A stretch of DNA of 64,000 bases. Origin: Octopus vulgaris. Its lineage: Eukaryota. The DNA lies in contig OX597840.1 of assembly GCA_951406725.2 (NCBI GenBank), positions 17,050,001-17,114,000 on the forward strand, written 5' to 3'. Position 1 is the first letter of the stretch. Every line of letters starts with the position of its first letter. Position numbers and translations under genes: made by a program. Shown in pieces: positions 1-30,900 of this stretch. The notes under the pieces were generated by a model. The model worked only from the letters and a program-made list of their open reading frames with translations, had not been told where the DNA came from and did no database searches.

Positions 1-558
1 ATTATAATTAAGGGTATCTAAAAGATACCACCATGCTAGAGATAGCAGTCAAAACTTGACTCTAAGACCACATCAAGTATTCATAAAGCACAAGGAGAAA
101 AGACAAAGAGACAAATTAACGAGCAAAAAATTATTGGATAATCCCTGGTGTGGTATTTTGATTGGATAATCCCTGGTGTGGTATTTTGATTGGATAATCC
201 CTGGTGTGGTATTTTGACCATGTGGCACATGGAGTTTAGACGGACATTTAAACCAGTCATGTGCATACGTACATATATATATGTGTGTGTATACATGCAT
301 ATATGTAAGTATTCGTATGTTGTATGTATGTATATTTGTAATTGTGTACTATCTGTGAATATCCCACTAAAGAGGCAGATTATATTCTTATGCAAAGCAA
401 GAAATCTAGATCTGGGATTATCCAATAATTTTTTGCTCGTTTATTTGTCTCTTTGTCTTTCCTCCTGGTGCTTTATGAATACTTGATGTGGTCTTAGAGT
501 CAGGTTTTGACTGCTGTCTCTAGCATGGTGGTATCTTTTAGATACCCTTAATTATAAT
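1..558. mobile_element. Foldback element (Penelope-like pLTR remnant) with a decayed hammerhead at 361-418
   Basis: 1-145 is the reverse complement of 414-558. Internal 3 x 28-bp tandem repeat at 133-216. Motif atccca-CTAAAGA-...-GAAA-tctaga-TC-tgggat. Confidence 0.65.
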
Positions 559-871
559 TTTAATAATAATAATAATAATATATATTTTATACATATACAC
601 ACATAGGTTCAGGAGTGGCTGTGTGGATTCTATGGCTGGATACCCTTCCTAGCACCAACCACTCCAAACGTGTACTGGGTTTCATTTATCTGTCACTGAC
701 ACAGGTGCCTTTTATGTGTTGCCAGCACTGGCCACCACTACGATTTCACTTGTGTATATGTACACATACAAACAATTATATGTATAAACACATTTATATA
801 CACACACACACACACACACACGTATTATCAAAAACTAACCTACACTTGTTTGTTTTTTGTTGTTGTTTCAG

Positions 872-27900: not shown

Positions 27901-30900
27901 AAGCAAGCTTCTTACCACACAGCCTCGCTTGCATCTTTGGAGAACCATTTTATTTCACAAATATATTTTACTCTTTTACTTGTTTCAGTCATTTGACTGT
28001 GGCCATGCTGGAGTACCACCTTTAGTCGAGCAAATCGACCCTGGGACTTATTCTTTGTAAGCCCAGTATTTATTCTATCGGTCTCTTTTGCTGAACCGCT
28101 AAGTGACGGGGACGTAAACACACCAGCATCGGTTGTCAAGCAATGCTAGGGGGACAAACACAGAGACACTAACACACACATGCATATATATATACATATT
28201 TACGATGGGCTTCTTTCAGTTTCCGTCTATCAAATCCACTCATAAGGCTTTGGTCGGCCCGAGGCTATAGTAGAAGACACTTGCTCAAGATGCCACACAG
28301 TCGGCCTGAACCCGGAACCATGTGGTTGGTAAGCAAGCTACTTACCACACAGCCACTCCTGTGCCTAAATAAAATTTGAAAATGTTTAAATAAAATTTGA
28401 AAATGACATTTTAGAAATATATATATTTTCAATGTATTTATTTTCATTAATCAGACGTTGTCCCCTCTTGAGATGTACCCCAGAATCTTGGACTTCCATC
28501 CGGTTATAATGGCAACATTCTCTATGACGTTAGCAAGGCCCTGTATTCTTCCAATTGTAAGTATTCCAGTATCTTCTTTCTATTTCATCAAATTAGGGTC
28601 CTTTTTTGTGATATCAAACTTTATAAACACCAGACTGACTCAGAAAAAAATTAAATGAAACGGGTCTTTTGGTAGGTTTTGAACCTTGTATCTGTGATAT
28701 GCTGGATGATCATGTTAATCCCTCTCTTAAATCACCTTTTGTTTCTGCTTTAAGTTAAGTTAATTTTTTGGCTCAAAAAGCAAAAAGCAAGGCCATGTAG
28801 GGGGACATGGAGTTATGTACAGGGAGGGTGTTCATGCAAAGAGTTCAGGCCATTTCTGGTCAAAAGAGACTTTGAACCGAGCGGTCATCGGCATCTTCAC
28901 TATCTCGTCTGGCAGCTTATTCCACGGATCCGCAACCCGGACGGAGAAAGCCCCTCTCCTTCAATTGAGATGAAATCGTCGCAGATAGAGTTTTGTTATG
29001 TTCTTTGTTTATTATTTTAGTTGTATTGTTTCATCAATACAAGAGTTATCATCTTCATCATCATATACATCTGTCTATCTATCTATCTATCTAGATAGAT
29101 AGATAGATAGATAAGAAATTTGGATGACAAAGGAGCAAACAATTATGTTATGAACCTCATTGGCTTACAGCTGCTTCTTTCCTACTTCATCTTTGTAGCT
29201 CTGGTGAGGCTATAGGATGATATTCAGGCACTCAACTATGAGTGCATTGCAGAAACAACTGTAAGCTAATGAATTTGATAACATAATTATCTGTCTGTTT
29301 GTCATCCCAATTTCTGATCATCACTCTGTACGCAACTAACACTTTCATCTAAAGCTTACGTATATTGAGTTCTAACACCAAGTTATTACGATGCTTAAGT
29401 GAAACATTACTCTCCAGCTGAGTAACCTTGTACCTCCTCTACAGCAAGACACCTATTTCTATCTCTTTCATCATCTGACAGAAGGTCACCTCCTCCAATA
29501 CCCTCTCCCCTCTCAGAGGATTTTTTTGTCTTGCAAGTTACTTGGTGACCCTGTCAATGCAGGTCCTACTTAAAAAGCATCCAGTCCATACTGTTAGTGT
29601 TTGGAAGGTCACCCAGCTGTTAAAACCTTGCCAAAACTGACCTCACCTGTGCTTGTGTCACGTAAAAAGCACTCAGTCCACTCTACTGAGTGGTTGGTGT
29701 TAGGAAGGGCATCCAGCTGTAAAACTCCTGCCAAAACAGTTACAGAAGTCTAGTGCTGGCTTCTGCCTGGCCAGCTCCTGTCAAACTGTCCCACCCATGC
29801 CAGCATGGAAGGTAAACGTTAAACGCTTATGATGATGACGTTATATATATATATATATATATATATATATATATATATATATATATATATAAATATATAT
29901 ATGAAGGCAGTGAGCTGGCAAAAATGTCAGCACACTGGGCGAAATGCTTAGCAGTATTTCACCTGCCGTTACGTTCTGAGTTCAAATTCCGCAGAGGTCA
30001 ACTTTGTCTTTCATCCTTTCGGAGTCGATAAATTAAGTACCAGTTATGCACTGGGGTCGATATAATTGACTTAATCCCTTTGTCCTTGTTTGTCCCCACT
30101 ATGTTTAGCCCCTTGTGGGCAATAAAGAAATAAGAAACTTTAGCACGCCGGGTGAAATGCTTAGCAATATTTTGTCTGTTTTTACGTTCTGAGTTCAAAT
30201 TCCACTGAGGTCGACTTTACCTTTCATCCTTTCGCGGTTGATAAATTAAGTACCAGTTGCATACTGGCATCGATCTAATCGACTTGCCCACTCCCCCAAA
30301 ATTTCGGGCCTTGTGCCTAGAGTAGAAAAGAATATTATTTATTCATCTTTTCGGGCTCGATAAATTAAGTACCAGTTATGCACTGGGGTCGATGCAATCG
30401 ACTTAAACCATTTGTCTGTCCTTGTTTGACCCCGCTATGTTTAGCCCCCTGTGGGCAATAAAGAAATAGATATATATCTACACATCCTTTCAATTTTAGG
30501 TGGTGAGCAAAGGAAACGACCAAGTAGCCATGAGTTCCAAGTTTGAAACAAGAGAAGACATTGGTATGTTCCTTTTGTTTCCATTGAGTTCCATCTTTGT
30601 TGTTGTCATCCCTGAGTTTCATGAATTGTGATTTGCTGAATCAACAACTGAATAACTTGATGTCTCCCTAACTACGACCCTTTTACTTGTTTTAGTCATT
30701 TGACTGCGGCCATGCTGGGGCACCACCTTGAAGGGTCTTAGTCAAACAAGTAATAGGACATATGTTTTTTTTTTTCAAAAGCCTACTAGTACTTATTCTA
30801 CCTGCCTCTTTTGCCGAACTGCTAAGTTACAAAGACACCGGTTGTCAAGCAATGCTTGGGGACAAACACAGACACTAAAACACACATAAACATACACACA

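Follow-up and report, generated by a model that had tools for sequence, protein, structure and literature searches.

Hammerhead-like motifs in foldback units at the Octopus vulgaris ERCC2 locus as probable remnants of Penelope-like elements

What kind of mobile element leaves small hammerhead-like motifs, most of them set in inverted pairs, within a single essential gene? The question is raised by a stretch of 64,000 nucleotides from Octopus vulgaris (assembly GCA_951406725.2, contig OX597840.1, positions 17,050,001 to 17,114,000 of the forward strand). This whole stretch is called the window here, and positions are counted from its first letter. The host gene is Octopus ERCC2/XPD, on the plus strand. 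Protein-cluster mapping (P0002) divides it into 23 segments, the translation of a 55-residue exon matches a protein cluster named Octopus vulgaris XPD with 100% identity, and Pfam matches DEAD_2 and HBB in the host-gene frames. Six motif-bearing units, F1 to F6, were followed (Table 1). The original prediction had placed all of them in ERCC2 introns. This holds for F2–F4 (flanked by segments that end at 10696 and start at 15044), for F5 (between 24716 and 28455), and for F6 (between 28559 and 30500), but F1 precedes the first exon seen; it lies upstream of the segment that begins with amino acid 36 and is intronic only if codons 1–35 precede the window. We propose, with a probability of roughly 0.85, that the six units are dead, 5′-truncated 3′ ends (pseudo-long terminal repeats, pLTRs) of several endonuclease-positive families of Penelope-like elements (PLEs), and that they are decaying neutrally.

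All of the predicted motifs are present. They were sought with a relaxed descriptor of the type I hammerhead, a post hoc one, written after the instances had been seen. Its five best matches in the 64 kb were the minus-strand motif of F5, the F2 motif, the two F4 motifs, and the F1 motif, two of the five being arms of one unit, F4. At a score of at least 5, there were 5 matches, compared with a mean of 1.55 and a maximum of 3 in 40 local dinucleotide shuffles, and at a score of at least 6, there were 4, compared with a mean of 0.42 and a maximum of 2 (40 shuffles). Three of the four independent top matches lie inside foldback units, which occupy 5.3% of the window (P about 6 × 10−4, also post hoc). 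The minus-strand motif of F3, the F6 motif, and the plus-strand motif of F5 were matched as well, but ranked low amid chance-level matches. A strict descriptor was taken from the published consensus for metazoan PLEs, with an extra base after A9, G10.1-C11.1, palindromic 15.2/16.2, and one core change tolerated. It gave two matches in the window, F2 and the left arm of F5, both with the extra base, G10.1-C11.1, and a palindromic, loopless stem III, and none in any of 400 shuffles. For the whole window and for sub-regions alike, Rfam gave no hammerhead match at E ≤ 10, and the folding of nine motifs as monomers was near the shuffled level (z from −2.1 to +0.3). Both results are expected for loopless motifs.

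The families fall into three architectures: F2 and F5 are loopless, F1 and F6 combine a 6-nt palindromic insert and a long loop II, and F3 and F4 have a 7-nt near-palindrome in common. Stem III is palindromic in all six. The original prediction had described families that were unrelated in sequence yet built on a common grammar, and both statements stand in part. No cross-family BLAST match was found, but F3 and F4 have in common GAAA and a 7-nt stem III insert, one letter apart. Every motif was found and F2 and F5 fit the consensus, but F1, F3, and F6 are without a clean stem II. The scores of F3 and F6 are at chance level and that of F1 (5.5) is borderline; as motifs alone, these three are weak, and they rest on their context. 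Scans for the family motifs gave no match in viral contigs (two scans) and none in genome contigs, and 86 metagenome-contig loci were rejected as chance 16-mer matches with flanks that have no homology.

The minimal hammerheads of metazoan PLEs (PMC4209133) provide the closest comparison. F2 and F5 match their consensus in the short stem I, the extra core base, G10.1-C11.1, GAAA, palindromic 15.2/16.2, and UH. The Lottia gigantea hammerheads in the supplement of that paper have the same grammar as F2 and F5, and F1, F3, F4, and F6 resemble the variants described there with a small palindromic helix III. The PLEs of that study also occur as solo copies and as opposite-strand pairs 100–700 bp apart, as they do here. 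A U3-A8 core variant is reported there; a U4C or A6U family does not appear in the portion covered, and Octopus is absent from the supplement file that was searched. Octopus Penelope hammerheads like these were not found in the literature, as represented by titles and some passages. The giant squid has 235 Rfam hammerhead-1 loci (PMC6962438), and Penelope is abundant in coleoids, with hammerheads not mentioned in the passages covered (PMC8967140).

The assignment to PLEs draws further on the anatomy of the insertions. An inverted copy of the part 3′ of the motif, as originally described, was confirmed in five of the six units, which are head-to-head inverted pairs with 5′-truncated arms. The arms differ at 5 of 145 positions in F1, 19 of 80 in F3, 7 of 83 in F4, 19 of 185 in F5, and 14 of 69 in F6, and those of F3 overlap in a 10-nt palindrome (11484–11493). 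A target-site duplication (TSD) was found in two of the eight units or fragments tested (11 bp in F2, 12 bp in F5), whereas random flank pairs reach direct repeats of at least 11 bp in 2 of 300 and 1 of 300 cases. A one-sided tail is seen in two of the six units, F4 and F5. The partial tandem of direct pLTRs is not present in these truncated stumps, which total about 2.0 kb, or 3.2% of the window. The 5′ ends cluster at the motif: 9 of 13 arms or fragments begin inside the hammerhead or no more than 17 nt upstream of stem I (F1 left, both arms of F3, F4, and F6, and two extra F5 fragments), 3 of 13 begin 53–257 nt upstream, and the remaining one (F1 right) is undefined. Two of these ends are at or adjoin the predicted cleavage site, among them that of the F1 inverted arm, 1 nt past it. 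This set of ends is biased, since the units were found through the motif.

Insertions of endonuclease-positive PLEs comprise a pLTR, an inverted 5′-truncated copy, an optional tail of 30–40 bp, and a TSD of 8–10 bp (PMC3846280, PMC8557442, PMC11167929). The head-to-head inversion, the palindromic overlap at the junction, the one-sided tail, the target duplication, and the AT-rich or microsatellite surroundings described for them (PMC3846280, PMC8557442) are all seen here. Unlike those insertions, the present units keep no open reading frame (ORF), F5 has a tail of about 26 nt and F4 one of about 60 nt, and the duplications are 11–12 bp. Naiads, a group known from Octopus, are without canonical hammerheads, and five short motifs compared with the Naiad/Chlamys/Hydra supplement of PMC8557442 gave two isolated chance matches. 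PLEs account for 6.83% of the O. vulgaris genome and are divided into 190 families (PMC13282606 supplement), and six families in 30 kb are therefore as expected. The suggestion that the system is poorly annotated is thus only partly borne out: the PLEs themselves are annotated, although the same paper is silent on hammerheads and ribozymes in the part covered. The gain in annotation is that, for several PLE families of Octopus that were counted but not called ribozyme-bearing there, hammerheads may flag where the pLTRs end. The pLTR origin put forward in the original prediction is supported by the anatomy and by the published minimal hammerhead consensus, but a link to an ORF for reverse transcriptase (RT) or a GIY-YIG endonuclease was not found, and membership in the PLEs consequently rests on anatomy.

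Table 1. Coordinates of the host gene and of the six units at the ERCC2 locus, with the span that gives F3, F4, and F5 their labels; the other labels refer to the motifs listed.
Feature	Position	Strand	Remarks
ERCC2/XPD coding exons	872..42616	+	protein mapping, amino acids 36–760
F1 inverted arm	1..145	−	97% complementary to 414–558; may run off the window
Tandem at F1 inversion junction	133..217	.	perfect 28 bp × 3; no hammerhead inside
F1 hammerhead-like motif	361..418	+	6-bp stem I, G5A core, long weak stem II, 8-nt palindromic stem III
F1 3′ part, then (AAT)n run	414..558	+	
F2 solo 5′-truncated copy	11000..11178	−	11-bp duplication 10989–10999 / 11179–11189; very high-copy family
F2 loopless minimal hammerhead	11088..11125	−	5-bp stem I, A6U, extra A, G10.1-C11.1, 4-bp stem II, palindromic 15.2/16.2
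F3 old head-to-head pair	11408..11571	.	motifs 11438–11485 (−) and 11492–11539 (+); label span 11432–11545
F4 tail	about 12870..12932	−	beyond left arm only; family sequence per public contigs
F4 head-to-head pair	12933..13113	.	3-nt spacer; motifs 12968–13009 (−) and 13025–13066 (+); label span 12968–13066
F5 insertion unit	26117..26677	.	12-bp duplication 26105–26116 / 26678–26689; label span 26188–26630
F5 long arm	26490 to 26117	−	one-sided tail 26117–26142
F5 short arm	26491–26675	+	abuts long arm; starts inside B box
F5 loopless minimal hammerhead	26188..26233	−	G12A (CpG-type)
F5 second hammerhead	26585..26630	+	G5U
tRNA-like A box / B box upstream of F5 hammerhead	26326..26379	−	pattern match
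Open frame of F5	26372..26490	−	39 codons; stop just inside A box
Third F5-family copy	43999..44068	−	starts in loop II; downstream of last ERCC2 coding exon
Fourth F5-family fragment, with tail	47274..47326	+	starts at or within 3 nt of predicted cleavage site; abuts other foldback
F6 head-to-head pair	29110..29319	.	short arm 29110–29178 (−) begins at GAAA segment
F6 full motif	29196–29268	+	A6G, 7-bp hairpin in loop II, palindromic stem III

The mechanism that we suggest for these units is borrowed from PLE biology. Each PLE master would carry a minimal type I hammerhead about 45–145 nt from its 3′ end. The PLE protein would nick AT-rich DNA, and reverse transcription would start near the 3′ terminus of the RNA at two sites, which would leave the optional tail; two RT start sites have been given as the explanation of the PLE tail (PMC11167929). 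Synthesis would often stop early, at or near the hammerhead, and a second, shorter copy in the opposite orientation would then produce the head-to-head foldback, in two cases with an 11–12 bp target duplication. Cleavage by the hammerhead in the master RNA would take place only in a dimer, via the palindromic stem III. In the stumps, the hammerhead would be carried along passively and undergo neutral decay that begins at CpG sites, and pairing of the sense motif with the upstream inverted arm should keep that motif from folding in the ERCC2 pre-mRNA.

How do the window copies of F2 and F4 compare with their families? The region 10985–13130 was compared at 80% likeness with one RNA run and three DNA contig sets; only depth ratios within one run were used, and summed contig depth was not taken as copy number. 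Both families are high in copy number. The depth of F2 is 0.20–0.32 of that of the commonest segment of a short interspersed nuclear element (SINE) in the three DNA runs and 0.147 in RNA, and the corresponding values for F4 are 0.017–0.026 and 0.022. That RNA depth tracks DNA depth, with no end pile-up, fits passive transcription within host RNAs (one library). For F3, the depth was low and its family is unsampled in this comparison. Contigs of one set (X1), which may be the source sample, match 11217–11618 and 12933–13062 with 0 differences, and F3 and F4 were accordingly not taken for artefacts of assembly. The hinge of F4 is spanned by 7 contigs with 19–22 differences among the 24 pieces listed (1 from X1, 2 from X2, and 4 from X7), and the F4 foldback recurs elsewhere in the genome.

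Core position 8 of the F4 right arm (13036) is G in 86%, 90%, and 86% of the DNA depth in the three runs, and in 55% of the RNA depth, whereas both arms in the window carry A. The family majority of G8 implies that G8A in the window is CpG-type decay of an intact core. Position 4 of the same arm (13032) is C in 86%, 90%, and 88% of the DNA depth and in 65% of the RNA depth. Since U4 copies agree more closely with the left arm, they may be assigned there, and the true share of C4 is roughly a third to 90%. C4-G5 forms a CpG, whose decay leads to the canonical letter, and therefore at least one F4 master carried U4C. The idea that the core substitutions fit CpG decay is therefore sound for F4 G8A and F5 G12A, but position 4 of F4 varies at the family level. 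For F2, the differences among the best 40 of 142, apparently those with shares above about 88%, are at 11021 and 11073, and none is at core position 6 (11117). A canonical majority would probably show among these, and thus A6U may be a family-level letter in F2. Upstream of the motifs the depth drops. Two nucleotides upstream of stem I in F4, at 13023, it is 2–3% of the core depth in all three DNA runs and 30% in RNA, and the bin upstream of the F2 motif, which was covered in part, shows a 6- to 18-fold fall. Three explanations are available: most copies start at the motif edge, their upstream sequence differs, or alignment ends were trimmed.

In F5, the long arm runs in the order 39 codons, stop, A box, B box, about 90 nt, hammerhead, 45 nt, and tail. 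The same tail is found on the fourth family fragment, and every core position is intact in at least one F5 copy. The A/B box pattern matches twice in the window, both strands searched, and F5 is one of the two. In this stretch, ARAGORN found no tRNA and Rfam scored none. The 39 codons may correspond to the end of a PLE endonuclease domain. A run search gave no RNA run on record for F5, and no internal or tRNA-like promoter in a Penelope pLTR was found in the literature, as represented by titles and the beginnings of abstracts.

The finding is real but mostly ordinary; less ordinary are U4C in F4 and the tRNA-like A/B box of F5. These features admit a bolder view, which we hold tentatively and think somewhat doubtful. 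Masters with permanently weakened cores (U4C in F4 and probably A6U in F2) would have given rise to Octopus PLE families of thousands of copies, copies would begin preferentially at the 5′ edge of the ribozyme, and the motif would act mainly as a structural boundary for reverse transcription or for strand inversion and less as a rapid cleaver. F5 would carry in its pLTR a captured tRNA-like promoter for RNA polymerase III (Pol III), which could launch short non-autonomous hammerhead RNAs. A 2017 paper by Lunse et al. reportedly deals with PLE hammerhead variants that cleave as dimers, and it may already cover U4C or A6U cores. In a viroid, U4C lowers activity in vitro and allows infectivity (PMC3088659), and for an Anolis PLE, insertion in vitro is normal in catalytic mutants (PMC11167929). 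If some of its 190 PLE families did spread with non-canonical cores, the octopus genome would offer a natural experiment on the importance of cleavage for amplification.

Several results weigh against a derivation of the six units from PLEs. G10.1-C11.1 is absent from the window copies of F1, F3, F4, and F6. No convincing TSD was seen in the other six of the eight units or fragments, including F3, F4, F6, and two extra F5 fragments. Pfam detected no PLE domain in the flanks (89 of 118 frames of at least 35 amino acids), and the 39–42 residue frame of F5, a candidate ORF end, has no homologue in sequence searches and none in Pfam. F1 is young (1.7% per copy), yet its stem II is poor and its core is altered; under neutral decay, the probability of such a core alteration is P = 0.17. 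No read-end pile-up was observed at F2–F4 in one RNA run from one cDNA library, of a kind that can lose small circles, and absent pile-up has also been reported for an active PLE (PMC11167929). Last, stem I of F5 and F6 is unformed even in a short-context fold, so that the inverted arm is not the sole reason for its absence.

Could some of the units be non-autonomous elements that were mobilized by PLEs in trans? F5 above all, and perhaps F2, would then be tRNA-headed, SINE-like hammerhead elements transcribed by Pol III, or else non-LTR retrozymes; elements of both kinds have been described (PMC6765202, PMC7229834). In the SM-alpha and Sj-alpha elements of Schistosoma, a Pol III-type promoter is followed by a hammerhead (PMC6765202), as in F5, where the A box and B box are 34 nt apart upstream of the hammerhead. 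The lack of an ORF link for F5, the high depth of F2, and the recurrence of the F4 hinge foldback in several contigs also suit such elements. However, the long arm of F5 extends 111 nt 5′ of the A box (one copy), and the 5′ end of the unit is therefore not a Pol III start; F5 differs further from SM-alpha and Sj-alpha in its loopless minimal motif and its PLE-type inversion and tail. Non-LTR retrozymes are head-to-tail tandems of 150–450 bp with canonical hammerheads and abundant circular RNA (PMC7229834). The present units resemble them in the type I hammerhead, the non-coding sequence, the low GC content, and the long TSDs, but canonical hammerheads are not seen here, no hammerhead unit in the window forms a head-to-tail tandem, and no sign of abundant circular RNA was seen for F2 and F4 in one cDNA library, of a kind that can lose small circles. 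For F2 and F4, the ratio of RNA to SINE depth matches that of DNA (one RNA run), without end pile-ups. These observations do not bear out the retrozyme system of the original prediction, and we consider a non-autonomous origin of F5 or F2 unlikely.

A different doubt concerns F1, F3, and F6, which might be ordinary foldback repeats, MITE-like (miniature inverted-repeat transposable element) or other, that show the hammerhead grammar by chance. F3 and F6 score 3.5, and shuffles average 3.75 matches at a score of at least 4. High-scoring motifs are absent from six further foldback units of the window, and the family of F3, low in depth, is unsampled in the contig comparison. On the other hand, the motifs of all three units point away from the hinge, like those of F4 and F5. 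The F3 motif is in register on both arms and has its stem III in common with F4, and F1 and F6 have 8-nt stem III palindromes and perfect stems I of 5–6 bp. The predicted energies of the stem III self-duplex are −8.0 kcal/mol for F1 and −13.1 kcal/mol for the F6 left arm. A chance origin of these three motifs is, in our judgment, quite improbable. As separate observations, a 25-nt match to the 3′ part of F1 occurs at 37382–37406 and possibly reflects a motif common among Octopus repeats, and a short frame just upstream of F6 (28835–28960, −) has no Pfam match; we take it to resemble the C-terminus of an L2/CR1-type LINE ORF.

It had also been proposed that every copy has a core substitution and that intact hammerheads are purged from the sense strand of essential-gene introns, where they would cut the pre-mRNA. 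The first statement holds for the other motifs, but the left arm of F3 keeps all 11 core letters on one parse. On the sense strand, there are 7 changes in 5 motifs (F1 G5A; F3 G5A and G8C; F4 U4A and G8A; F5 G5U; F6 A6G), compared with 3–4 in 4 motifs on the antisense strand (F2 A6U; F3 0–1; F4 G8A; F5 G12A). The excess is in the direction expected from purging, and within pairs the sense arm is the more changed in F3 and F4, and equal in F5. Tandem retrozymes have likewise been reported as depleted from Xenopus introns (bioRxiv 10.64898/2026.07.22.740005). The difference between the strands is not significant at this sample size, and the antisense motifs, which the pre-mRNA does not carry, are mutated as well. 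Arm divergence alone predicts such changes, with a probability of at least one core change per copy of 0.38–0.75 for F3–F6 and 0.17 for F1. A single minimal hammerhead gave no cleavage in PMC4209133, and the foldback places one motif on each strand, where it is predicted to be sequestered by the inverted arm. When the whole sense-strand unit was folded, the probability of stem I was 0.0 for F1, F4, F5, and F6, and 83–100% of the 3′ strand of stem I was predicted to pair with the upstream arm; without that arm, the probability was 0.88 for F1, 0.36 for F4, 0.01 for F5, and 0.0 for F6. Given antisense decay, arm divergence, the absence of single-motif cleavage, and predicted sequestration, selection is unnecessary, and purging from this essential pre-mRNA is very unlikely.

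In the ERCC2 pre-mRNA, the foldbacks may form long double-stranded RNA. The octopus is known for heavy A-to-I editing.

The window contains other features beside the six units. A micro-exon of ERCC2 with 8 codons (amino acids 309–316) was located by peptide matching at 20467–20490 (+). A match to 5S rRNA (73 bits) in an ERCC2 intron at 2331–2445 (−) adjoins a SINE and is probably a pseudogene or a 5S-derived repeat. Other high-copy repeats lie between F3 and F4 (11777–12600); they include a segment that is duplicated internally, and a stretch like them occurs near 23850–24230. A broken non-LTR retrotransposon at 32724–34447 (−), with RVT_1 (E = 3.7 × 10−14) and a weak PHD-finger match, appears to be RTE-like and not a PLE. 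Two frames, 4090–4400 (+) and 14293–14674 (−), have no Pfam match and presumably carry Tc1/mariner-like transposase motifs. MITE-like foldbacks without a high-scoring hammerhead are found at 17888–18274, 22086–22693, 23568–23745, 46973–47276, and 54287–54406, and the centre of that at 22086–22693 is a short CCCTAA-like repeat.

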